Positions 5,226-47,528 of a stretch of DNA of 64,000 nucleotides are shown here, piece by piece. Source of the DNA: a virus; UHGV virus genome UHGV-1373625. One strand, given 5' to 3'. How positions within the stretch are numbered: the stretch's first letter is position 1; each line of letters begins with the position of its first letter. Below the pieces are notes generated by a model, which worked only from the letters and a program-made list of their open reading frames with translations, made no database searches and had not been told where the DNA came from. The position numbers and the translations under genes were made by a program.

Positions 5226-5295
5226 GACATTCCTAGATTCCGATAAACCTTTTTCCCTTGCCGTTGAAAAGACTTTATAGGAATCTAGGAATGTC
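5226..5295 (-). promoter_or_regulatory. 16-bp inverted repeat (gacattcctagattcc / ggaatctaggaatgtc) bracketing a minus-strand promoter -10; candidate operator
   Basis: Inverted repeat at 5226-5241 and 5280-5295; the ccgttgaaaagactttat motif between the arms recurs at 4516-4533. Confidence 0.45.
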
Positions 5296-5308
5296 GTCAA
5301 TACTTTTT

Positions 5309-5776
5309 TTATTTTATTTTTACAAGCGTTCGAGTATGTAAACACTGAATATTATAACCACCTGCATAAATTACTTGAATTGTTACTGTTTTTTCTCCTT
5401 TATTAGTGCAGATCCTAAATACGCCTTCAAATCCATCTTTAGAAAAAACGTTTTTGCAAAAAGTAACGCTAGTTATATCTAAATCCGCCATTTTCTTTGA
5501 AATAATTCCGTTCCTTTTTTTGATCATTGCCTCATGATTTTTTATAACGATTTTTTCTATATATTCCATTGGATTATCAGAAAAAATACGAAACCACGTT
5601 TTTCCACCAAAACGTAAGAAAACCTCCTCCTCATTATAAGTTCTATACTCCTCCGTATTACGAAAGGCGTTAAATTCTGCCTTTTTTAAAAAAGCCCATT
5701 CGATATTGGACTTTAATATACCTTCATCAAATGCCGCCAAAATTTTATTTAACATGATAATCAAATCTGAGTTCAT
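5309..5776 (-). CDS. hypothetical protein
   Basis: 155-aa ORF with agagg RBS. Confidence 0.5.
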   Translation of the reverse strand: MNSDLIIMLNKILAAFDEGILKSNIEWAFLKKAEFNAFRNTEEYRTYNEEEVFLRFGGKTWFRIFSDNPMEYIEKIVIKNHEAMIKKRNGIISKKMADLDITSVTFCKNVFSKDGFEGVFRICTNKGEKTVTIQVIYAGGYNIQCLHTRTLVKIK

Positions 5777-5788
5777 ATATAACCTCTG

Positions 5789-6163
5789 CTACCCGAGATA
5801 TTCCATACAGACAACGGGATCTGTCTCAACCGTCTCGAATCCCTCACTAGCGTAAAAGTCAACAAGATCTTCAAGGCTCATGCCATCGAAATCAGGAACC
5901 GCCGCAATTTTCAAGGGAAGGTGCGGAAACTTCCTCTTTGCATAAGATATCGCGGCTCGGAGCAAGACTCTGCCGTGTCCCTTGCGACGATACTCAGGCC
6001 GTACATGAAGATCAGAAACAAGTACGATATCCTGTTCTTCATAGCCATATAATGCGCTAGGGGCATCAATAATCTCTACCTCTTGAGAAATCATGCAATG
6101 ACCATATTCCGACTCAAACACGATATCCCGGCCAGTATGCCCGGTCACAGTGATCTTACTCAT
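5789..6163 (-). CDS. GNAT-family N-acetyltransferase
   Basis: RRKGHGRVLLRAAISYA acetyl-CoA-binding motif; start placed at MSKITV, which has a ggaggg RBS. Confidence 0.7.
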   Translation of the reverse strand: MSKITVTGHTGRDIVFESEYGHCMISQEVEIIDAPSALYGYEEQDIVLVSDLHVRPEYRRKGHGRVLLRAAISYAKRKFPHLPLKIAAVPDFDGMSLEDLVDFYASEGFETVETDPVVCMEYLG

Positions 6164-6339
6164 AAAAATACCCTCCATGCGATTCGTTTAAAGAGACTCT
6201 ATGCAAATACTAAATCACTGTCAAGCGGATCTATGAAATAATCGAAAAGAAAAAATATTCGTGCACTCGCATATTATATAAGGTATTGCAAGTACTGTGC
6301 CACAATATCGGTATGGCTACTCTACGATGGTTCCGAGTC

Positions 6340-6460
6340 AATGACACCTAATGACACATAATGACATCTATTACACATGATGACACTTCTTTGACATCTG
6401 TTGACGGTCGTTGACAGTCTGTGACGCTTGTTGACGGCTATTTACGGTCGTTGACGACCG
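6340..6460. repeat. Helically phased array of about 12 TGAC(A/G) elements at 10-bp spacing (aaTGACAcnta x5, then tTGACggtcg-type x7); iteron-like
   Basis: TGAC at 6342, 6352, 6362, (6372 variant), 6381, 6392, 6402, 6412, 6422, 6432, (6442 variant), 6452. Confidence 0.85.
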
Positions 6461-6725
6461 TGCACGGGGATTTTCAACGATTGTTCAATAAATAACTATC
6501 AATACAATCAACTACTTACAACTTGGCATAAGTCTTGCATAGGTTGAGATTGGTTTGAGATTCTCCAATCATTTCAAGTATATGGGAGGGGGTAGGGTCA
6601 AAGTGTACCGCATTCCGGTATATAGTACCGTCGTTGACTCAAAAAAACATTTTTTTCGATTTCTGAGCTTTTATCCGGTTGTAATTATTCATGTAAATTT
6701 TTTAAACGAAATTTTAATAAAACTA

Positions 6726-6754
6726 TTGACAAAAAATCGTTTATGGATTAAGAT
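6726..6754 (+). promoter_or_regulatory. sigma70-like promoter TTGACA-17-TAAGAT upstream of terS
   Basis: -35 at 6726, 17-bp spacer, -10 at 6749. Confidence 0.4.
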
Positions 6755-6789
6755 TTTTACTAAATTTAACATAAAAAAGGAGAAAAACA

Positions 6790-7260
6790 TTGCGACGCCA
6801 AACAAAATCCATCGAAGCGCATAAGCAAGATGGTACATACAATTCTACGAAGCATGGAGTGGACGTTCCATTGGCGGAAGGACCGCTGAGGAAAATCAAT
6901 TGGGACAAGATGTCCTCGGAAGATATTTATAACACGATTGCTGATGTTATCGCACAGAAGGGCCTTGACCACGCTGAATACTCTCTGGCTTTGGAACTCC
7001 TAGTTTATGCGGTGAATAGGATGCTTAAACTCCGCAGGGATTTGAAAGCCCAAGGCGGCGAGACATATATTACGCCGTCAGGTATCAGGAAAAACAATCC
7101 TACTGCGAAACTTGTTATGGAAGCAGAAAAGCAAGTTGATACCCTTCTACAAAGATTTGGGCTCACGCCGGATTCTCGTAGCCGAGTAGCTAGGAAGAAG
7201 GGAGAACTTAATCTAGGGGGTGAAGATTCTTTCGGATCTCCGGAAGGTTTCTTCAATTAA
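6790..7260 (+). CDS. terS: Phage terminase small subunit, P27 family
   Basis: Motifs TPSGIRKNNPTAKL and FGLTPDSRSR are characteristic of P27-family TerS; TTG start with aaaaaggag RBS. Confidence 0.7.
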   Translation: MRRQTKSIEAHKQDGTYNSTKHGVDVPLAEGPLRKINWDKMSSEDIYNTIADVIAQKGLDHAEYSLALELLVYAVNRMLKLRRDLKAQGGETYITPSGIRKNNPTAKLVMEAEKQVDTLLQRFGLTPDSRSRVARKKGELNLGGEDSFGSPEGFFN

Positions 7261-7293: not shown

Positions 7294-7321
7294 TTGACAA
7301 GTATAAAAATCTAAGTATAAT
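7294..7321 (+). promoter_or_regulatory. Near-consensus sigma70 promoter TTGACA-16-TATAAT driving the tRNA cluster
   Basis: ttgacaagtataaaaatctaagtataat. Confidence 0.55.
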
Positions 7322-7494
7322 CTATTTCAGTAAAAGGTGTTGTTGGCTACATGGAAAAGCTACGCTTTCGAGCGTTACCGTATGTTCGACTCATATGGGC
7401 ACCATCAAAAAGATAGACTCGTATTTCAATTGATGGAAAGTAAGTCTGTAACCGAGAAAATGCGGGCTTAAATCCTATCGAGTCTATCATTATG

Positions 7495-8412: not shown

Positions 8413-8488
8413 GGACTCGTACTTCAATTGGCAGAAGATCCGGCTCATAACCGGGAAGTTATAGGTTCGAGTCCTATCGGGTCTACCA
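8413..8488 (+). tRNA. tRNA-Met (anticodon CAU; could be initiator or lysidine-modified Ile)
   Basis: Manual fold: acceptor ggactcg/cgggtct with two GU pairs, D-stem cttc/gaag, anticodon loop ctCATaa, T-arm atagg-TTCGAGT-cctat, CCA encoded. Confidence 0.75.
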
Positions 8489-8492
8489 TCAT

Positions 8493-8570
8493 ACTATCGT
8501 AGCCCAACAGGTAGAGGCAAGGGTCTTAAAAACCCTACAGTATTGGGTTCGAATCCCATCGGTAGTACCA
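8493..8570 (+). tRNA. tRNA with anticodon UAA (Leu by anticodon) but a short type-I variable arm
   Basis: Acceptor actatcg/cggtagt, anticodon stem agggt/accct with loop ctTAAaa, T-arm ttggg-TTCGAAT-cccat, discriminator A, CCA; the D-arm is weak. Confidence 0.5.
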
Positions 8571-8578
8571 AAAAATAT

Positions 8579-8655
8579 TGTGGGATAGTTCAGTTTGGCA
8601 GAACACTTGACTGTTAATCAAGGTGTCGGCGGTTCAATCCCGTCTCCCACAGCCA
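8579..8655 (+). tRNA. tRNA-Asn (anticodon GUU)
   Basis: Acceptor tgtggga/tcccaca, D-stem gttc/gaac, anticodon stem cttga/tcaag with loop ctGTTaa, T-arm ggcgg-TTCAATC-ccgtc, discriminator G, CCA. Confidence 0.8.
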
Positions 8656-8670
8656 GAAGAATTAAAAACA

Positions 8671-8760
8671 GGACAGGTGCCAGAGTCAGGCTTATTGGGG
8701 CGGTCTTGAAAACCGTTGGCGCAGGAGCGTCCGTGGGTTCGAATCCTACCTTGTCCGCCA
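8671..8760 (+). tRNA. tRNA-Ser (anticodon UGA), class II with a long variable arm
   Basis: Acceptor ggacagg/cttgtcc, anticodon loop ctTGAaa, variable stem ggcgc-agga-gcgtc, T-arm gtggg-TTCGAAT-cctac, discriminator G, CCA. Confidence 0.75.
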
Positions 8761-9557
8761 AATTTATCGATATTTATACGGGATACGAAGTAGAGCTGAC
8801 AAGTGCGTTGAAAAACAGACGGATATGTCGAAAGACATAGACTAATAGTAGCTGCGACGCAATAGACCTTCTATGACGATAGATAGAACTAGCATATCAA
8901 ACTCGTGGTTACGATGCTTCGTTACTTGCAAGACCCTATTAAATATCGATAATATTTCGATGGATTGAGTTGATCTACGTATCTCCCCGTATGGATCGAG
9001 AACGCAAGATCCTCTCCATCGATAAAAGCCAAACGTGATCTTGAAAGGAACGATTCGACCTCCTTGCGTAGCCTATCGAGGTCCGTTTGGCCCCACAAAT
9101 CTCCGGGTGTAGTTTAAGAGCTTAGTCAGGACCTAGATGAGAAAACCGCATACTAGTAGGCACTCATTGAAAAAAGATACTGGATTCTGATAGGCCATAG
9201 TAAAACAGCTTGCGAAGATGCGAATGCTTGATCAGCATTTTAGGTGCAATTCCCGCCACTCGGACACAATTAAATTTCGTGGTTCCATAAGTCATTCTCC
9301 ATAATCATTATCTAATACGCCATAAGCACAGCCTTTCAGGGCGGCAGTATAAAGCGTATATTCTGGCGGCAGGGCTTGCCGTTACAGCCTGTGGAGCGGG
9401 AAAGGCTCAAGCTCCCGCGATGAATCAGGAACCCGCCTATAGTTTGGCCTAATTGGGCTTTACTGATAGGAATTCCTCGTCTAAAAGCGGGGGAGGATGC
9501 CAAAGATGGGTAAAAGGTGCTGCGAATACCTCCATCGCAATAAAAACCACGAAAGCG

Positions 9558-9600
9558 AAGGCCCCTAAAACAATTCAATATGTTTTAGGGGCCTTCTTTT
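9558..9600. terminator. Bidirectional rho-independent terminator (15-bp perfect stem aaggcccctaaaaca / tgttttaggggcctt)
   Basis: Perfect inverted repeat with an 8-nt loop, followed by cttttgtca on plus and an A-run on minus; lies at the 3' end of the minus-strand lysis-block gene. Confidence 0.8.
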
Positions 9601-9601
9601 G

Positions 9602-9913
9602 TCACTTATATACGTTAATGAACCATGTAACAAATACCGTGAATGCTGCGGATAGGATACCTAATGCACCTTTCCAGATCGAAATTTGTCTATCATGTCG
9701 TTTAAGAGTTTCTTTCATTTCCGTGATGTTGTCAATGTCGATTTTGTCGAGCTTTTTACGCATTTCTTCAATCAACATGCTTTGATTTCCAGTCCGTTCA
9801 TCAATACGATGGGCAAGCGTAAGAATACGCCGTATCGTTTCCTCATTCGTCATATTGTGGCAAGCTAGGCACCCGAGATTAGGTGATGCCGAGTGCTGCG
9901 TATTTTCCGCCAT
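9602..9913 (-). CDS. Small membrane-anchored protein at the lysis-cassette end (holin, antiholin or spanin-like candidate)
   Basis: 103 aa with a C-terminal hydrophobic helix GALGILSAAFTVFVTWFINVY; adjacent to the holin and endolysin. Confidence 0.5.
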   Translation of the reverse strand: MAENTQHSASPNLGCLACHNMTNEETIRRILTLAHRIDERTGNQSMLIEEMRKKLDKIDIDNITEMKETLKRHDRQISIWKGALGILSAAFTVFVTWFINVYK

Positions 9914-35638: not shown

Positions 35639-36760
35639 ATGTTTGAAGTAAAAGGATCAGTAAGTACAGCTAAGGTTTTCACAGATTATGTGGAGCCGAC
35701 CGCGTTATCTCAGATTATTGAATTATGTAATCAGGAGTTCACCGAAGGAAGTAAAATCCGTATTATGCCTGATGTACATGCTGGTGCTGGATGCGTTATT
35801 GGAACGACGATGACCATTGAAAATAAGAAAATCGTTCCTAATCTTGTCGGTGTTGATATCGGTTGTGGGCTACTGTCCTGTGAATTTACTTTGGGGGATA
35901 AGCTCAACAATAGCTTTTTTGAAGAAGTTGATCGAATTATTCGAAAGTATATTCCCGCAGGATTTAATATTCGTAACGACAAGCATGAATTGGTTAGCGC
36001 CATCAATTTGAATACGCTTGCATGTTGTAATGAAGTTAATATCGCTCGTGCGGAGCACAGTATTGGGACTTTGGGGGGAGGGAATCATTTTATTGAAATA
36101 GGGGAATCCGATAATTTCGATGGTACTTTTTCTTATTTCCTTACCGTACATTCTGGTTCTAGAAATATTGGAAAAGAAGTAGCTACTTATTATCAAAATG
36201 TCGCTATTAAGGAATGTCCGGGCACCCCCAAACATCTAGCGTATCTTTCAGGGGAGATGTTCGATGAATATATGTATGATATGGAAATCATGAAATATTA
36301 TGCCTCTTTGAATCGTGAGGCGATCATTAACGATATCACGCTACACATTGGGATTAAGAAAGACGATGTCTATGAAACCGTTCATAACTATATAGAACGT
36401 ATTGACAATGATGTGTTCATGCTGCGCAAGGGAGCCGTTTCCGCTAAAAAAGAACAGGCTCTTATGATCCCTTTGAATATGAGAGACGGTATTATTTTTG
36501 GTTTTGGTAAAGGACTTGAAGACTGGAACTATTCCGCACCTCATGGAGCTGGACGTAGACTAAGCAGAGGTGAAGCCAAGCGCAGCCTTGATATGAATGA
36601 TTTTAAAAATGAAATGGAAGGTATTTATTCTTCTTGCGTAAATATTTCTACTCTTGATGAAAGTCCTATGGCATACAAGGATGGCTCAGAGATTCGTAAT
36701 AATCTTCAATCGGTGGAAACCTTGTTTACTATTAAGCCAGTATATAACTTTAAAGCATAA
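35639..36760 (+). CDS. rtcB: RtcB-family RNA 3'-phosphate ligase
   Basis: MPDVHAGAGCVIGTT (RtcB PDxHxGxG metal site) and the general RtcB layout; 373 aa. Confidence 0.7.
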   Translation: MFEVKGSVSTAKVFTDYVEPTALSQIIELCNQEFTEGSKIRIMPDVHAGAGCVIGTTMTIENKKIVPNLVGVDIGCGLLSCEFTLGDKLNNSFFEEVDRIIRKYIPAGFNIRNDKHELVSAINLNTLACCNEVNIARAEHSIGTLGGGNHFIEIGESDNFDGTFSYFLTVHSGSRNIGKEVATYYQNVAIKECPGTPKHLAYLSGEMFDEYMYDMEIMKYYASLNREAIINDITLHIGIKKDDVYETVHNYIERIDNDVFMLRKGAVSAKKEQALMIPLNMRDGIIFGFGKGLEDWNYSAPHGAGRRLSRGEAKRSLDMNDFKNEMEGIYSSCVNISTLDESPMAYKDGSEIRNNLQSVETLFTIKPVYNFKA

Positions 36761-37425: not shown

Positions 37426-38181
37426 ATGTATGGATATGTTTATTGTACAACAAATTTAATAACGGGTTGTATGTATATAGGTAGACACGCATCTAGTGTA
37501 TTCGATGAAAAGTATTTTGGCTCGGGAAAGATACTAAAACGAGCTATAAAAAAATATGGAGAGAATAATTTTTCTATAGAGATACTTTGCGAAGCGGAGT
37601 CTTATGAAGATTTAGCTGAGAAAGAACGATATTATATAGCATTATCAGATGCGGTAAACCGTAAAGATTTTTATAATATAGGCAGGGGAGGAGAGGGGTT
37701 CCCTTCTGGAGAAAATCACCCAAATTATGGTAAAAAAGGCAAGGACGCTTTTGGGTGGGGGAAAGTGCATACTGATAAATTTAAAGAATATATGTCGAGA
37801 ATACGAAAAGGTATGAAGTTTTCTTTTGACCATAAGCAAAAATTATCTCAAAAGAAATTAGGGGATGCTACATTAAATAAAGGAAGGCGTGTATCAGAAG
37901 ATACAAAGGCCAAATTATCTCAAATAAACAAAGATGCTCAATTAAATAGGAAAATGGGTATTAAGCAAAATGGTAGAATAAGGACTTTTCATGAGTTCTT
38001 ACACGGCTTTAAAGTTGCTATTTATTTTACAGATGGGTCGATTAAGACTTTTGATAGCATGAAAGCCTGTACGAGATACACTTCATTGAAACATAGGGTG
38101 CGCCACATAAATACTATAAAAAGGATTATTAATGGAGAGACATTACCTCCAGAAGGGGTGAGAAAAATATGCTATATTTAA
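37426..38181 (+). CDS. GIY-YIG homing endonuclease with NUMOD-type DNA-binding repeats
   Basis: GYVYCTTNLITGCMYIGRHA (GIY-YIG), catalytic R..E region, repeated K/H-rich NUMOD3-like motifs. Confidence 0.7.
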   Translation: MYGYVYCTTNLITGCMYIGRHASSVFDEKYFGSGKILKRAIKKYGENNFSIEILCEAESYEDLAEKERYYIALSDAVNRKDFYNIGRGGEGFPSGENHPNYGKKGKDAFGWGKVHTDKFKEYMSRIRKGMKFSFDHKQKLSQKKLGDATLNKGRRVSEDTKAKLSQINKDAQLNRKMGIKQNGRIRTFHEFLHGFKVAIYFTDGSIKTFDSMKACTRYTSLKHRVRHINTIKRIINGETLPPEGVRKICYI

Positions 38182-39327: not shown

Positions 39328-39386
39328 ATAGAAAATTGGGAAGGGGGCTTTAAGCCCCCTTAAACTAAAGTTATATGGAGATAAAT

Positions 39387-41570
39387 ATGGGAAAGAAGCC
39401 TAACATGATTATTAAGCGTGATGGTTCTAAAGTCCTTTTTGACCCCAAAAAGATTGAACTTGCTATTACTAAAGCTCTTATTTCGGAAGGGGTAGCTTCT
39501 ATTTTTACTGGAACTGCTCACGCTATTGCTGAATCTTTTGAAAGTGAAAATGAAACTCCAACGATTAAAGAAATTGAAGAATATGTTTTTAAGAGCCTTT
39601 GCGAGGCCGGGCTTCCTCTTGTAGCAAAAGCCTACGAAGGTTACAGGAGTATTCGAGAATTTCAACGCTCTGATCAATTTACCGATGAATCCATCCTTTC
39701 TATTGTAGCCGGAGGAACGGATGAGGACCTTCGAGATGAGAATAGTAATAAGAATGTCGCTACAGCGTCTACGCAACGAGACATGATCGCTGGTGAGGCT
39801 TCAAAAGATATTGCGATGCGGCACATGCTCCCCCCTCATGTTGTACAGGCCCATAAAGACGGGCTTATTCACTTCCATGATTTGGATTATGCTGTGCAGC
39901 GAATTTTTAACTGTTGTCTTGTTGATTTGCGTGGTCCATTTAAGGACGGAACCGTTATTAATAAGAAGATGATTGAGACTCCTAAGTCGTTCAGGACAGC
40001 CTGTACAGTCGCTACGCAGATCGTCCAACAGGTAGCGTGTGGACAATACGGTGGTCAGACTATTTCCCTCGCGCATCTCGCTCCGTATGTTAGGGTAAGC
40101 TACGAAAAGATTAAAAACCAAGTTAGAGAAGAACTTTTTGGGGATGATGTCCCTCTTGCGTCTCCCACTAAGCTTTGCGGGAATCGAGAAGTTGAGCATA
40201 TTGCCAAGAAGCGGCTTCGTAAAGAAATTGAGGATGGTTTACAAACCATTCAGTATCAGGTAAACACTTTTTCGACAAGTAATGGGCAAGCTCCGTTCCT
40301 TAGTATTTTCATGTATCTGAATGAAGATCCTGAATATATTGAAGAGACGGCAATGCTTATTGAAGAGATGATTAAGCAACGATACATCGGGATGAAGAAT
40401 GAAGCCGGAGTGTATGTTACCCCCGCGTTTCCTAAACTCCTGTATGTGCTTGATGAAAATAATGTTCCTAAAGATAGTAAGTATCGGTATCTGACAGATC
40501 TGGCGGTGAAATGTGTAGCTAGGCGTATGATGCCGGACTTCATTTCCGCAAAAAAGATGAAAGAAAATTATGAAGATGTTTTCCCCTGCATGGGATGCCG
40601 TTCTTTTCTTTCTCAATATAGAGATAAAGATGGCAAGCTGAAATGGTATAATAGATTCAATCAGGGTGTGGTAACTTTGAACCTTGCGGATGCAGGACTT
40701 TCCGCAGACGGTAATATTGACGCTTTCTGGAAAATCCTTGACGAGCGCCTTGAATTGGTTCATGATGGCCTCATGTGCAAACATAAGAGCCTTCTTGGTA
40801 CGAAGGCCGAAAAGTCTCCTATCCATTGGCAGCATGGAGTTATCGCTCGCCTTAAAAAAGATGATGTAATTGACCCATATTTGAAAGATGGGTATTCAAC
40901 TTTGTCTCTCGGATACATTGGGCTCCATGAATGCGTTCTTGCTCTTATCGGAGAATCACATACTACGGAACGTGGAGAAGAACTTGCTGTACGTATTATG
41001 CGTAGATTGAGAAAAGCTTGCGACGATTGGCGTGCAGAATCTGGTCTTGGATTCAGCTTGTACGGGTCGCCTTCCGAATCTACAACTTATCGTCTTGCAC
41101 AGACAACTCAGAAGCGATTTGGAGTGGTTAAGGGAATTACTGACCGAGATTATTTGACAAATTCATACCATGTTGATGTAACCGAAAAGATTAGTGCATT
41201 TGATAAACTTCGTTTTGAATCTCAATTTCAGAAAATTTCTTCCGGTGGCTGCATCAGCTATGTGGAAGTTCCGAATTTGGAGCAGAACCTCGAAGTGATT
41301 GATCAATTGGTTTCTTATATGTATGAAACTATTCAGTACGCTGAGATCAATACCAAATCGGACTATTGCGCTAAATGTGGATTTCGAGGAGAAATCAAAC
41401 TGAATAATAATCTTGATTGGGAATGTCCTCAGTGCCATACGGTAAATCGAGATGATCTTACTGTTTGCCGTAGAACTTGTGGCTACTTGGGCGATAATTT
41501 TTGGAACAAGGGACGAACCGAGGAAATCGGTGCCCGAGTATTGCATGTTGACAATGAAGACTTGAGCTGA
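39387..41570 (+). CDS. nrdD: Anaerobic ribonucleoside-triphosphate reductase (class III)
   Basis: C-terminal glycyl-radical region CRRTCGYLG and Zn ribbon CAKCG..CPQC; start at 39387 with ggaga RBS. Confidence 0.85.
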   Translation: MGKKPNMIIKRDGSKVLFDPKKIELAITKALISEGVASIFTGTAHAIAESFESENETPTIKEIEEYVFKSLCEAGLPLVAKAYEGYRSIREFQRSDQFTDESILSIVAGGTDEDLRDENSNKNVATASTQRDMIAGEASKDIAMRHMLPPHVVQAHKDGLIHFHDLDYAVQRIFNCCLVDLRGPFKDGTVINKKMIETPKSFRTACTVATQIVQQVACGQYGGQTISLAHLAPYVRVSYEKIKNQVREELFGDDVPLASPTKLCGNREVEHIAKKRLRKEIEDGLQTIQYQVNTFSTSNGQAPFLSIFMYLNEDPEYIEETAMLIEEMIKQRYIGMKNEAGVYVTPAFPKLLYVLDENNVPKDSKYRYLTDLAVKCVARRMMPDFISAKKMKENYEDVFPCMGCRSFLSQYRDKDGKLKWYNRFNQGVVTLNLADAGLSADGNIDAFWKILDERLELVHDGLMCKHKSLLGTKAEKSPIHWQHGVIARLKKDDVIDPYLKDGYSTLSLGYIGLHECVLALIGESHTTERGEELAVRIMRRLRKACDDWRAESGLGFSLYGSPSESTTYRLAQTTQKRFGVVKGITDRDYLTNSYHVDVTEKISAFDKLRFESQFQKISSGGCISYVEVPNLEQNLEVIDQLVSYMYETIQYAEINTKSDYCAKCGFRGEIKLNNNLDWECPQCHTVNRDDLTVCRRTCGYLGDNFWNKGRTEEIGARVLHVDNEDLS

Positions 41571-44909: not shown

Positions 44910-45078
44910 AGATAAAGCCACCCTTTCTAAGCTTATTTATTTCAAGAAACGTGATTTGGATTGGGTAGAGGAGCTTTTGCGGCAAGGCGTCGACCCAACC
45001 TGTACTGAATATGAACTCATTAAAAAAGAGTTGGCGGAACTGGAGAGCGAATTTAAAGGAAATTCGGAGAAAAAATAA
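44875..45078 (+). CDS. Small hypothetical protein between portal and protease
   Basis: 67 aa overlapping the portal 3' end; ggagag RBS. Confidence 0.35.
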   Translation: MAINGMTKTMSKDKATLSKLIYFKKRDLDWVEELLRQGVDPTCTEYELIKKELAELESEFKGNSEKK

Positions 45079-46016
45079 TGACAGTTGAAACGAAACATTT
45101 TTGCCCTTTTAGTGATCTTGAATGTAAAAGTGATGACGGAGATCAATATACATTTTCCGGATATCTCGCCGTTTGCAATAATGTCGACCAAGGTATGGAC
45201 GTTATCATGCCCGGCGCATTTAAAGACACTCTCCGAGAATGGAAAAATAAGGGGCATTATCCTCCAATGCTAAAGCAGCATGGCGGCCTGAAACTTACCG
45301 CTGATGATCTTGAGCCTATTGGAAAATGGACGCTTATGCGTGAGGATGAAAAGGGCCTTTATGTAGAAGGGAAACTTTTCAGTACCACGTCTGGCAAAGA
45401 TATGTGGACAGTCTTGAAAGAATCAGACCCCGGTTCTATGGGCATGAGCATTGGCTATCAAGCCAGAGATTATAAATATGTGGAAGGAAAGAAATACGGT
45501 CGGAAATTTTCCGCATATACTGTCCGAGAATTAAATAAAGTACATCTTATTGAAGGGTCTGTGGTGACGTTTCCCATGAATACGGAAGCTACTATTGACG
45601 CGGTGAAAAATATCGGCACTCTGCGAGATGCCGAACAATTCCTCCGTGAAAAAGGTTTTTCTAATAAGGAAGCCAAAGATATCGTTGTCCAGCTTAAATC
45701 CATTATCTCCGCTGATATTGATGCGGAAATCAAAGGAATTAAACAGCCGGAAGAATCTAAGGAGACTCATGAAGAACCCAAGGGCATCCAAGAGGAATCC
45801 GTAAATATTTCCGAAGAGTCGAATGAGCCCGAAAACAATACTCCCGAAAATAACGCCGAAGATAAAACGAAAGGCGAAACTGTTTCTGAAAATACAGAAG
45901 AAGCTAAAATGGACGAAGAACTTTCTGCATGGCTTGATGAGGTTATTGCTGCCAAACGTAAAGAAAATGCAGAAAGGGAAGCTCTGGAAGCCTTGGAAGC
46001 GTTGTTTCGAAAATAA
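45078..46016 (+). CDS. Prohead protease (HK97 / S78 family) with an acidic C-terminal region
   Basis: N-terminal FSGYLAVCNNVDQGMDVIMPGAFKDTL resembles the S78 catalytic region. Confidence 0.7.
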   Translation: MTVETKHFCPFSDLECKSDDGDQYTFSGYLAVCNNVDQGMDVIMPGAFKDTLREWKNKGHYPPMLKQHGGLKLTADDLEPIGKWTLMREDEKGLYVEGKLFSTTSGKDMWTVLKESDPGSMGMSIGYQARDYKYVEGKKYGRKFSAYTVRELNKVHLIEGSVVTFPMNTEATIDAVKNIGTLRDAEQFLREKGFSNKEAKDIVVQLKSIISADIDAEIKGIKQPEESKETHEEPKGIQEESVNISEESNEPENNTPENNAEDKTKGETVSENTEEAKMDEELSAWLDEVIAAKRKENAEREALEALEALFRK

Positions 46017-46226
46017 TTTTTAATAAAAAATATGACTGATTATTACGCCGTTTTCTTAATTGAGACGGCGTAATTTTTTTGTTCTTTTTAAAAAAGGGGT
46101 TGACAAAAATGTAAAAATATGATTTACACTATCAAAGTCAATATTGGCAATGCCTCAGTTCGGGATGAATGGGAGGTACTTTTTACTTTATCTATTTTAA
46201 AAATCTCGAAAAGAGGAAGTGTTTTT

Positions 46227-47528
46227 ATGGCTGAAAATACTATTATCGACAAGATCAATGCACTTTGGGAGGAGCAGAAGGCTGCTCTCGACAAGCGTGA
46301 TGAACTCCTGAAAAAGGATAGCTCTGCCGCTATTTCCGATCTCAAGGAAATGCTTGCTAAACAGGACGAAGACTTTAAGAAGTATAAGGCTGAGGCGGAC
46401 GAAGAGATTAAACGTCTCAAGATTTCAAGCGCCCCCTCCGGTGATCCGAAGACTCGTGAAGATATGGTTAAGTCCGCTTTCTTCCGTACCGTCCACAAGA
46501 CCAACTATCAGGATCTTCCCGAGGAATCAAAATCAGCTCTTATTGAAGCTGAAATGCTCGCCGCGAAAGCTTATGGCCTTCCCAAGTCAGAAACGGAAAT
46601 GAAGACCCTCCTGTCTGGTATTGATACCTATGGTGGCATTTTCGTCCCTGTGGAAGTCGAACGTGATATCCTGAAACTCGCTCGTGATGACTCTGCGATT
46701 TATAGACTTGCTGAAAAGAAGACCACGGGTACGTCAAGCTATGAACGTCCTGTCCGTCTTTCCGAATCATCTGCTGTGTGGACTGGTGAAGTCGAAACGC
46801 GCCGCGAAACCAAGACTCCGGATTACGGTCAGCTCAAGTGGGATGTCCATACGCTCATGGCGAAGCCTACTTTGTCTTCCGAACTCATCGAAGACTCTTA
46901 TGTTGATATTGAAGCCGAACTCATGGACAGTACTCGTATCGCCTTCGGTGAAACGATTGCTCATGCCCATGTGTGGGGCAATGGCGTGAAGAAGCCTTTC
47001 GGCATTCTTGCCTATCCCGTTGCCGAACAGACTGGCAAGGCTGGTGTTGATTGGGGCAAGCTCGGTTTTGCTAAGACTGGCAAGTCTGGTGCGTTCCTTC
47101 CTTACGATTCTGCCTCTAAGGATAAAGGCCCCGCCGATTGCCTTATCGATATGACCACCTTCCTGAAACGTGGTTATCGTCAGGGCGCTAACTGGTTGAT
47201 GAACTCCTTTACCGAGTCCTCCGTGCGTAAGCTCAAGGATAACGATGGTAACTATCTGTGGCAGCCGTCCTTGCAGATGGGCAAGCCGAACACCCTGCTC
47301 GGCTACAACATCGAAATTGACGAAAATATGCCCGACATTGAAGCCAATGCTTTCTCTATAGCCTTCGGCAACTTCCGTAAGGGATATCTTGTTGTCGAAC
47401 GTCGCGGTATGCGTATCCAGCGAGACACCGTGACCAAGGCCCCTCTCGTTATCTTCAACATTGACCTGCGTACTGGCGGCGGCGTTCAGAACTTTGAAGC
47501 GATTAAGCTGCTCAAGTTCGCGGCCTAA
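46227..47528 (+). CDS. Major capsid protein, HK97 family (with an N-terminal coiled-coil delta domain)
   Basis: Start at MAENTIID with aagaggaag RBS; coiled-coil N-terminus then an HK97-fold-like core; sits after the protease. Confidence 0.75.
   Translation: MAENTIIDKINALWEEQKAALDKRDELLKKDSSAAISDLKEMLAKQDEDFKKYKAEADEEIKRLKISSAPSGDPKTREDMVKSAFFRTVHKTNYQDLPEESKSALIEAEMLAAKAYGLPKSETEMKTLLSGIDTYGGIFVPVEVERDILKLARDDSAIYRLAEKKTTGTSSYERPVRLSESSAVWTGEVETRRETKTPDYGQLKWDVHTLMAKPTLSSELIEDSYVDIEAELMDSTRIAFGETIAHAHVWGNGVKKPFGILAYPVAEQTGKAGVDWGKLGFAKTGKSGAFLPYDSASKDKGPADCLIDMTTFLKRGYRQGANWLMNSFTESSVRKLKDNDGNYLWQPSLQMGKPNTLLGYNIEIDENMPDIEANAFSIAFGNFRKGYLVVERRGMRIQRDTVTKAPLVIFNIDLRTGGGVQNFEAIKLLKFAA

Follow-up and report, generated by a model that had tools for sequence, protein, structure and literature searches.

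The closest described relatives of what we find in the virus genome UHGV-1373625, in a stretch of 64,000 nucleotides (hereafter the window, always at that full length), are of two kinds. The first comprises RNAs encoded in phage tRNA clusters: RNAC and RNAD of phage T4, also known as species 1 and 2 stable RNAs, have tRNA-like ends and are processed together with the tRNAs. These are tRNA-cluster RNAs of unknown function (PMC9697503). The second comprises the guide RNAs of TnpB nucleases. Elements of the IS200/IS605 family of insertion sequences (IS) insert downstream of a short target or transposon-associated motif (TAM), a rule that is also general knowledge (PMC10055086); PATE-like elements encode omega-RNAs and need TnpB in trans (PMC10055086); and the RNA family RAGATH-18 is the scaffold core of the guide RNAs (reRNAs) of IS607 TnpB (PMC11061315). 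The locus discussed here is the interval at 8761-9557, about 800 bp between a tRNA cluster and the lysis genes, which an earlier note, made from the sequence alone, had described as protein-free, highly structured and a candidate for one or more noncoding RNAs. We find that the interval is a mosaic of separate modules and not a single RNA. One module (D) is identified by its sequence as an orphan omega-RNA and right end of an ISDra2-like TnpB element, whose nuclease gene has been lost down to its last 29 codons. Another (B) is a lineage-specific structured RNA made of two hairpins and a tRNA-like domain. Taken as a whole, an operon trailer that holds a cargo slot with the orphan omega-RNA D and the structured RNA B is, in our judgment, the likely explanation of the interval.

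The mosaic emerged from a comparison of about 20 related phage contigs (labelled L with a number). Nine syntenic loci were retrieved from IMG/VR with a neighbouring protein of 191 amino acids (aa), and the interval was aligned across them; a metagenome scan and the adjacent 103-aa protein supplied extra relatives, the latter giving, in a set of 5.8 billion proteins, five clusters that led to L364 (with B) and to L356 and L357 (without B). Across the nine loci, A, C and D are each either cleanly present or cleanly absent in genomes whose remaining sequence is 92-99% identical, and B and E are conserved:

8761-8955, + strand: module A, a structured insert some 190 nt long, which perfect inverted repeats of 13 nt (8764-8776 and 8940-8952) close; missing in L008 and L009, with identical boundaries, and in L364.
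8951-9274, + strand: module B, present in all nine loci and about 80% identical in L009.
9274/9275, insertion point: module C, 240 nt with an open reading frame (ORF) of about 70 codons; not in the window, found only in L002, L005, L006, L007 and L008.
9311-9503, + strand: module D, a 193-nt insertion and TnpB-less remnant of an ISDra2-like IS200/IS605 element; found only in the window, L003, L001 and L236.
9504-9600: module E and the terminator, present in all loci.

Among the extra relatives, L364 resembles L009 in having B and neither A nor D. About 190 nt of unrelated AT-rich DNA replaces B in L356, whose lysis genes are about 76% identical, and other genes occupy the position of B in L357; both keep E and a terminator. 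What lies between tRNA-Ser and E thus varies even among near-identical phages, and this space is best described as a variable cargo slot. The proposal of candidate noncoding RNAs thus holds in that the interval is noncoding and that pairs in B, D and E are kept by compensatory change, but not in the sense of one unit.

The identity of module D follows from the elements listed here:

9354-9503, + strand: omega-RNA scaffold with the transposon right end, ending in GGAGGAUGCCAA.
9360-9452, + strand: remnant of the TnpB C-terminus, in translation ILAAGLAVTACGAGKAQAPAMNQEPAYSLA and then a stop, overlapping the omega-RNA.
9388-9431, + strand: kink-turn hairpin, CCUGUGGAG...CGAUGAAUCAGGAA, which resembles RAGATH-18.
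9504-9523, + strand: putative guide segment in the flank just beyond the right end, placed there by the TnpB model (PMC10055086).

The Rfam scans covered the whole window at gathering thresholds and, with E values of up to 10, three sub-regions, which are small search spaces. Its sole non-tRNA lead was RAGATH-18 (RF03064) at 9388-9431 (34.0 bits, E 7.6e-4), which does not reach the gathering score of 44.9 and is absent from the gathering-threshold scan. The kink-turn nucleotide pattern matched 67 stretches of IMG/VR exactly, and nhmmer aligned about 150 nt of D (window 9348-9517) with many unrelated IMG/VR contigs. In these unrelated homologs the C-terminus of TnpB is coded upstream (...NADHNAALNILAAGLAVT...), and the family homology ends at GGAGGATGTCAA, that is ...GGAAUCCC-hairpin-GGGGAGGAUGUCAA, with 9503 as the last base in the window, and then diverges; such a stop followed by a variable flank is as expected of a transposon right end and the “guide” DNA beyond it. 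A covariance model (R1) was trained on 13 sequences from other viral contigs, the window and its relatives being excluded; it has a single match in the window, which is full-length at 9354-9503 (88.7 bits, E 3.7e-29). A near-full TnpB lies directly upstream in 7 of the 13 training sequences, an eighth being cut by the contig end, while two have a truncated remnant only and three have none that we could detect. The family consensus shows compensatory changes in 16 of its 26 pairs.

This consensus also allows the stems near 9340-9440, which had been read as a multi-helix junction, to be judged one by one. The stems ggcagggcttgcc and gcggg..cccgc covary in the family, whereas agcct/aggct and the long-range closure gggcgg/ccgcc lie outside its consensus, so that the junction itself is not supported; the stems taken for a candidate phage noncoding RNA belong to the orphan TnpB omega-RNA. 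Similarly, “highly structured” is apt for the + strand of 8761-9600 as a whole (z -4.9 against shuffles, terminator included) but not for the flagged 9340-9525, which alone folds no better than shuffles (z -0.9).

What is left of the nuclease gene in the window is its last 29 codons (9360-9452). When the 392-aa TnpB encoded at 5262-6440 of the sister phage L313 (IMGVR_UViG_3300045988_122762) was compared with the window by tblastn, only its residues 369-390 matched, at 9381-9446 and with 100% identity; there is no tnpB elsewhere in the 64-kb window by this search and no tnpA, and the DNA upstream of D is the noncoding module B. As an adjacent tnpB gene is absent, we class D as an orphan (PATE-like) derivative and not as a complete IS. 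The sister phage shows what the full arrangement looks like: its 392-aa ORF runs into the same RNA as D, and the encoded protein has HTH_OrfB_IS605, OrfB_IS605 and Cas12f1-like TNB domains, with ISDra2 TnpB as its best PDB match over the full length (E 5.6e-56). Among 70 kink-turn occurrences in viral contigs, a near-full TnpB lies directly upstream in about 31, and the rest have remnants of 22-76 residues or none, so protein-less copies are common in viral contigs.

In comparison with the omega-RNAs of ISDra2-type TnpB, D matches the tnpB-linked family in scaffold structure and sequence, likewise overlaps the tnpB reading frame at its 3' end, likewise ends at the conserved ...GGAGGAUG(U/C)CAA with a variable guide-like flank after it, and likewise is inserted 3' of TTAY with no duplication and with empty sites in relatives; full-length and truncated copies also share one phage population. 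Unlike a complete ISDra2-type element, D has neither tnpB nor tnpA in the window and no recognisable left end, and unlike the usual tnpB-linked RNA it sits in the trailer of a tRNA operon, where it would be expressed by read-through and not from a gene of its own. The likeness to RAGATH-18 extends to the conserved kink-turn nucleotides (CCUGUGGAG...CGAUGAA.CAGGAA), but the apical part has 9 nt in D and not about 36. The nuclease of the sister phage is nearest to ISDra2 TnpB (IS200/IS605), whereas RAGATH-18 is reported only with IS607 TnpB (PMC11061315). Finally, in contrast to D, which overlaps an ORF, the IS607 reRNA is said to be independent of coding sequence.

The stems could instead belong to a degenerate group I intron, as the earlier note had considered, or to another large structured RNA found next to tRNAs, such as GOLLD or ROOL. 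The size of about 800 nt, the position adjacent to tRNAs and the many helices are reminiscent of these, but the region is modular, its parts have independent insertion histories and D is explained as an omega-RNA, so we find this hardly credible. In the Rfam 15 scans, group I introns, GOLLD, ROOL, HEARO and transfer-messenger RNA (tmRNA) gave no match at gathering thresholds or at E up to 10, which leaves the intron remnant without a signal at any threshold; the same scans matched only tRNAs and the sub-threshold RAGATH-18, with nothing for A or B. Nothing was found by the tmRNA mode of ARAGORN at a 70% threshold, and a collection of 50,697 phage records contained no blastn match to the region or to the first 25 kb of the window.

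A few observations speak against the assignment of D or narrow what it can mean. The left 43 nt (9311-9353) match the left end of no full element: local alignment of 9296-9360 with 33 tnpB-upstream regions reached a best score of 21, with a mean of 20 and a maximum of 25 in the shuffled null. D may thus stem from recombination and not from transposition, and a functional left end may be missing. The terminal stem of the window omega-RNA contains two non-canonical pairs and the kink-turn of the L003 copy is mutated (GUUGAA), which together make decay plausible. In addition, about 25 kb of phage genome beyond the window may hold a copy of tnpB. A 22-mer from D found no match in GTDB genomes, and the end sequence of the omega-RNA matched unrelated primers only in the literature.

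Other copies of the element show that it has been mobile in this phage population. L001/L273 (IMGVR_UViG_3300045988_125712) carries the syntenic D and, in addition, a solo omega-RNA copy of 237 nt (L319 1213-1449, - strand) with a 53-residue TnpB remnant. The site of the solo copy corresponds to window 46128-46130, between the genes for the prohead protease (45078-46016) and the capsid protein (46119-47528) and just past a promoter-like TTGACA-17-TATACT; it is empty in the window. The 85.8-kb contig L001/L273 ends inside D; the two near-identical omega-RNA copies in that genome most likely made the assembler break there. In contig 122762, D is absent and the full tnpB lies beside the genes for DNA polymerase and RtcB. 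A mini right end of about 115 nt, ending in GGGGAGUGCCAA (19-20 bits with R1), lies in the tRNA-Met of L003, L004, L005 and L207; the locus, in L003 8052-8165 on the - strand, is homologous to window 8413-8488, and the insert has the end GGGGAGTGCCAA and follows GTTAT. The 5' half of tRNA-Met has decayed since the insertion in these four, in which ARAGORN calls no tRNA-Met because the mini right end lies inside the gene, and the tRNA-Met of the window is intact. The empty sites of D read CTTTAC/GGATGG in L004 and TTTAC/AGATGG in L002 in the alignment (the slash marks the insertion point), and the left flanks are as follows:

Empty D site: TTTAC.
Window's own D: CATTAT.
Solo copy in L319: TTTAT.
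tRNA-Met insertion: GTTAT.

All mapped insertions thus lie 3' of TTAY and none has a target duplication, which fits the IS200/IS605 mode of insertion downstream of a short target or TAM.

The D RNA would arise as read-through of transcription that starts at the tRNA promoters, with the adjoining flank from 9504 onward as its guide, and it could act only with TnpB supplied in trans, for example by the full copy of a co-infecting sister phage. TnpB loaded with the D RNA would cut alleles that lack D (TTAY and then AGATGGAT...) and so favour its own retention; the would-be target, the empty allele, reads TTTAC or TTTAT and then AGATGGATAAAGGTGCTGCG. In L003, the right end is followed by 20 nt that agree at every position with the right flank of the empty allele (L002, L006, L007 and L008), and TnpB with the D RNA would therefore recognise D-less genomes. 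The putative guide at 9504-9523 has no second match in the window and, since D lies just 5' of E, doubles as the 5' strand of E. In this genome alone, D is most likely an inert relic.

Module B differs from D in being conserved in all nine loci. RNAalifold on seven B sequences gave three domains:

8957-9022, + strand: B1, a long irregular hairpin (helix 1: 23 pairs, 2 of them changed on both sides, 98.8% of cells paired).
9028-9091, + strand: B2, a long hairpin (helix 3: 22 pairs, 3 compensatory and 3 one-sided changes, 100% paired).
9102-9268, + strand: B3, a tRNA-like multi-branch domain closed by a stem of 7-8 bp.

In the whole structure, of which B1 and B2 form two hairpins of about 65 nt, 98.4% of cells are paired, and 9 pairs are changed on both sides, against 0-2 in controls slid by 1-3 columns. 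One example in B2 is GAUCUUGA/UCGAGGUC, which becomes GUUUUUGU/AUGAAAAC in L009; the apical 26 nt of the same hairpin (9045-9070, AAGGAACGAUUCGACCUCCUUGCGUA) are invariant and contain ACCUCCUU, which is identical to the anti-Shine-Dalgarno sequence at the 3' end of 16S rRNA. About 11 G.U pairs in B would be A.C mismatches on the - strand, which places the RNA on the + strand; folding of 8951-9274 against shuffles gives z -2.3 on the + strand and -1.2 on the - strand.

The same alignment argues that B is not coding, since the window and L009 differ over B by 62 substitutions in 319 aligned positions that fall 25/22/15 on the codon positions, with no 3-base periodicity, and by several indels of 1-2 nt. 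This bears on the possibility that the region encodes small proteins missed by the reading of ORFs, which we consider very improbable. There are ORFs of 43-110 codons on both strands of 8761-9557, but all are short, most start with TTG or GTG or are unconserved, and none has a Pfam match even at E 1. One of them, the 80-codon ORF at 9336-9578 on the - strand, runs antisense to the omega-RNA and is missing from every locus without D. Better grounds for a protein are found in relatives, in which module C has at the same place a ribosome-binding site and a hydrophobic, membrane-like ORF of about 70 codons (MEKFKSSAIYFIDSMFAL...); that module is not in the window, however, and its ORF, though intact in L005, L006 and L008, has an in-frame TAG in L002 and L007. 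We reject a conserved small protein in the interval, three parts of which (B, D and E) keep their pairs through compensatory changes, and the window is protein-free over these 800 bp as the earlier note had it. Modules C and D never occur together in the loci seen.

Domain B3 shares several features with tRNA. Its acceptor-like stem of 7-8 bp pairs UCCGGGU(G) at 9102-9109 with (C)ACUCGGA at 9257-9264, and it is directly abutted by a T-arm-like hairpin (9243-9257) whose loop, UGCAA-NN, is in the tRNA register and varies only in its last two bases. An anticodon-arm-like hairpin (9222-9240) has a 7-nt loop and, in helix 9, three compensatory pairs. B3 differs from tRNA in having no D-arm, a long extra arm of about 80 nt (9118-9196) and a 3' tail that reads CACA and not CCA; one arm has a 20-nt deletion private to the window. 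ARAGORN accepts B3 only when the threshold is lowered to 85% and a 76-nt “intron” is allowed for, and of about 1000 artificially spliced variants it called 3 as tRNAs. We accordingly rejected B3 as a tmRNA or an intron-containing tRNA, calls being made at relaxed thresholds only, and kept the term “tRNA-like”; unlike tmRNA, B3 has no tag-peptide frame, and neither the tmRNA model nor that of the Y-RNA-like YrlA matches it. The idea of a Ro/Y-RNA pair was likewise dropped, as a Pfam scan of 27 window ORFs showed no TROVE/Ro protein. A near-palindrome in B3 at 9148-9161 (GCATACTAGTAGGC) reads GTATACTAGTAGAC in L009, with the symmetric positions 2 and 13 changed together; its loop is too short for a hairpin, and it may be a protein-binding DNA site or a kissing or dimer site in RNA.

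B, and B3 above all, might be a functional tRNA mimic that RNase P and RNase Z process as they do a tRNA. As a decoy or sponge it might divert host defence nucleases that target tRNA, or it might work with the RNA-repair enzymes of the phage. This would account for the acceptor-like stem, the T-loop-like UGCAA-NN, the anticodon-arm-like hairpin with its compensatory pairs and the position directly after the tRNA cluster; furthermore, RtcB in this phage and an Rnl2-like ligase in L364 suggest a contest over tRNA integrity. We nevertheless regard it as unlikely, because a D-arm and an encoded CCA are lacking, the T-stem has only 2-4 pairs, the Rfam tRNA and YrlA models find nothing, no Ro/TROVE protein was seen in the scanned ORFs, and B is absent from close relatives that retain their tRNAs. 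The genes in question are that for the RtcB RNA ligase (window 35639-36760, + strand) and, in the L009-like L364 (711-1655), one for a T4 Rnl2-like RNA ligase near the lysis block in place of RtcB; RNA ligases together with a tRNA cluster hint at tRNA repair or counter-defence.

The lineage-specific structured RNA that we see in B is best compared with RNAC and RNAD of T4. Like them, it adjoins a phage tRNA cluster on the same strand, its distance from tRNA-Ser being 191 nt in the window and 7 nt in L008 and L009, but it is larger (about 320 nt, three domains) and has no sequence similarity to the T4 RNAs in the blastn search of the region against the 50,697 phage records. By analogy, B would be freed from the operon transcript by tRNA-processing enzymes and would persist as a stable small RNA, and the earlier suggestion of a phage small RNA is possible for this core. 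No Rfam family matched B. Homologs of B outside this phage group were found in none of IMG/VR, the JGI/ENA metagenomes and GTDB genomes: exact 14-22-mers hit only the same phage group or chance matches in IMG/VR (checked with nhmmer), an 18-mer recovered seven more copies, all near-identical, from the metagenomes, and in GTDB genomes it had chance matches in coding sequences only. Three points count against B as described above. The Rfam tRNA model has no match in 8761-9320 at E up to 10, so that the tRNA-likeness of B3 fails standard detectors; the covariation comes essentially from one diverged lineage (L009/L364) and thus from one set of events; and B is dispensable for this phage type, being absent from the next-closest relatives (L356/L357).

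Such dispensability raises the question of whether the whole interval is a decaying spacer, in which B3 would be a dead tRNA gene and D, perhaps also A, transposon debris amid filler, and whose sole role would be to separate the tRNA operon from the convergent lysis genes. The presence/absence polymorphism of A, C and D among genomes that are 95-99% identical, the loss of B in L356/L357 and the restriction of its homologs to one phage group would all follow from this, as would the private deletion in B3 and the decay of tRNAs in the cluster (tRNA-Met in L003-L005, tRNA-Asn in L005/L006, and 7415-7486). Neutral decay would not, however, keep nine compensatory pairs and 98% pairing at 80% identity, nor is it the expected source of a 26-nt invariant B2 loop amid diverged stems or of an E hairpin that survives complete replacement of its stem in L356. 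We regard the spacer explanation as doubtful, though it deserves to be taken seriously.

The hairpin just mentioned is part of module E, the most widely conserved RNA element of the interval, and it lies within a last domain that is closed by a stem of its own:

9505-9536, + strand: E hairpin with the invariant loop CUGCGAA, kept in every relative, including those without B.
9275-9284 with 9545-9554, + strand: closing stem of the last domain, UUUCGUGGUU with AACCACGAAA, an inverted repeat matching at 10/10 positions and paired in the minimum-free-energy fold.

The inner stem of E occurs as AGGUG/UACCU, AGGUG/CAUCU, AGGUA/UACCU and GAGUA/UACUU, the outer stem GAUGG/CCAUC is fully replaced by GGCCG/CGGCC in L356, and the G.U pairs of E fit the + strand only. 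D is inserted inside the domain 9275-9554. Covariation is silent on the closing stem, as it is invariant among close relatives, and in L356 its 5' strand pairs locally instead. Module A (8761-8956) folds better than shuffles (z -3.9). The window and L236 have U8797/A8817 where 17 other copies of A have A/U, possibly a compensatory pair. Neither an Rfam match nor an R1 omega-RNA match was found for A, and the idea of a family of miniature inverted-repeat transposable elements was rejected, since the inverted-repeat pattern found only syntenic copies in IMG/VR.

All of these modules lie between the tRNA genes and a terminator, in the following setting:

8413-8760, + strand: tRNA cluster (Met, Leu, Asn, Ser), called by ARAGORN, 45-63 bits with Rfam tRNA.
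8671-8760: tRNA-Ser, directly 3' of which the interval begins, as the earlier note had placed its left bound.
7294-7321, + strand: promoter-like site upstream of the tRNA cluster, 12/12 match.
About 8144, + strand: promoter-like site, TTGACA-17-TATAAG, read straight from the sequence.
9557-9596, + strand: intrinsic terminator, a 16-bp stem and then UUUU.

The hairpin at 9557-9596 is the sole strong terminator-like site in the area. It passes the terminator scan on the + strand, but the bidirectional function once attributed to it does not extend to the - strand, where the T-run lies about 10 nt past the stem. It abuts the stop codon of a convergent gene (9602-9913), past which lie the genes for the 191-aa protein (phrog_1544) and an M15 endolysin. 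A tRNA-operon transcript would run from left to right and stop at this hairpin, and it is probable that 8761-9557 is the noncoding 3' trailer of the operon on the + strand.

Further genes of this genome and its relatives deserve mention. The tRNA-Lys gene lies farther upstream, at 7494 (ARAGORN and Rfam), and before it, at 7415-7486 on the + strand, is a sub-threshold tRNA-like sequence (24 bits with Rfam tRNA against a gathering score of 29), probably a decaying tRNA gene, as L002 and L008 have a tRNA-Phe(AAA) at the matching position by tRNA-Lys. The tRNA-Asn of L005 (7916-7991) and L006 (7915-7990) is called by ARAGORN with a 2-base anticodon, that is, with a one-base deletion in the anticodon loop, a further sign of tRNA erosion in the cluster. 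In L364, a 506-aa DUF2828/DUF7788 protein is encoded at 5725-7245 on the - strand, between tRNA-Lys and the gene for the small terminase, where the window has only about 160 nt (7330-7491). A SegE-like GIY-YIG homing endonuclease gene (37426-38181, + strand) represents another selfish element in the window, and the gene for NrdD, an anaerobic ribonucleotide reductase (39375-41570), points to a host that is anaerobic or facultative.

Module D is thus a known kind of element, and B, A and E are the unexplained residue, of which B is narrow in distribution. The interval illustrates how comparison of near-identical genomes can break down a large “protein-free structured” gap in a phage genome into its parts, and how a guide-RNA scaffold without its nuclease mimics a novel noncoding RNA for the reader and for Rfam alike; Rfam offers only the sub-threshold RAGATH-18, none of its families covering this ISDra2-type omega-RNA. 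B adds a further stable-RNA candidate to those of phage tRNA clusters, a class that has been without an assigned function since T4. Two more far-reaching views would be that B is a new phage RNA class and that orphan omega-RNAs are trans-acting guides and not debris; we think them quite unlikely. On the first view, B would be a structured tRNA mimic encoded in the tRNA operon, with an exposed anti-Shine-Dalgarno-like loop, that acts on tRNA-targeting defences of the host or on translation; on the second, the orphan omega-RNAs would be loaded by the TnpB of a co-infecting phage or of the host and cut rival genomes that lack the insertion, which, if true, would amount to a phage-against-phage gene drive run from strong phage promoters. 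TnpB elements are both active and decaying inside a virulent-looking phage population, with at least four insertion sites, one of which destroys a tRNA gene, and since orphan guide RNAs are common in viral contigs, their action in trans during co-infection is directly testable.

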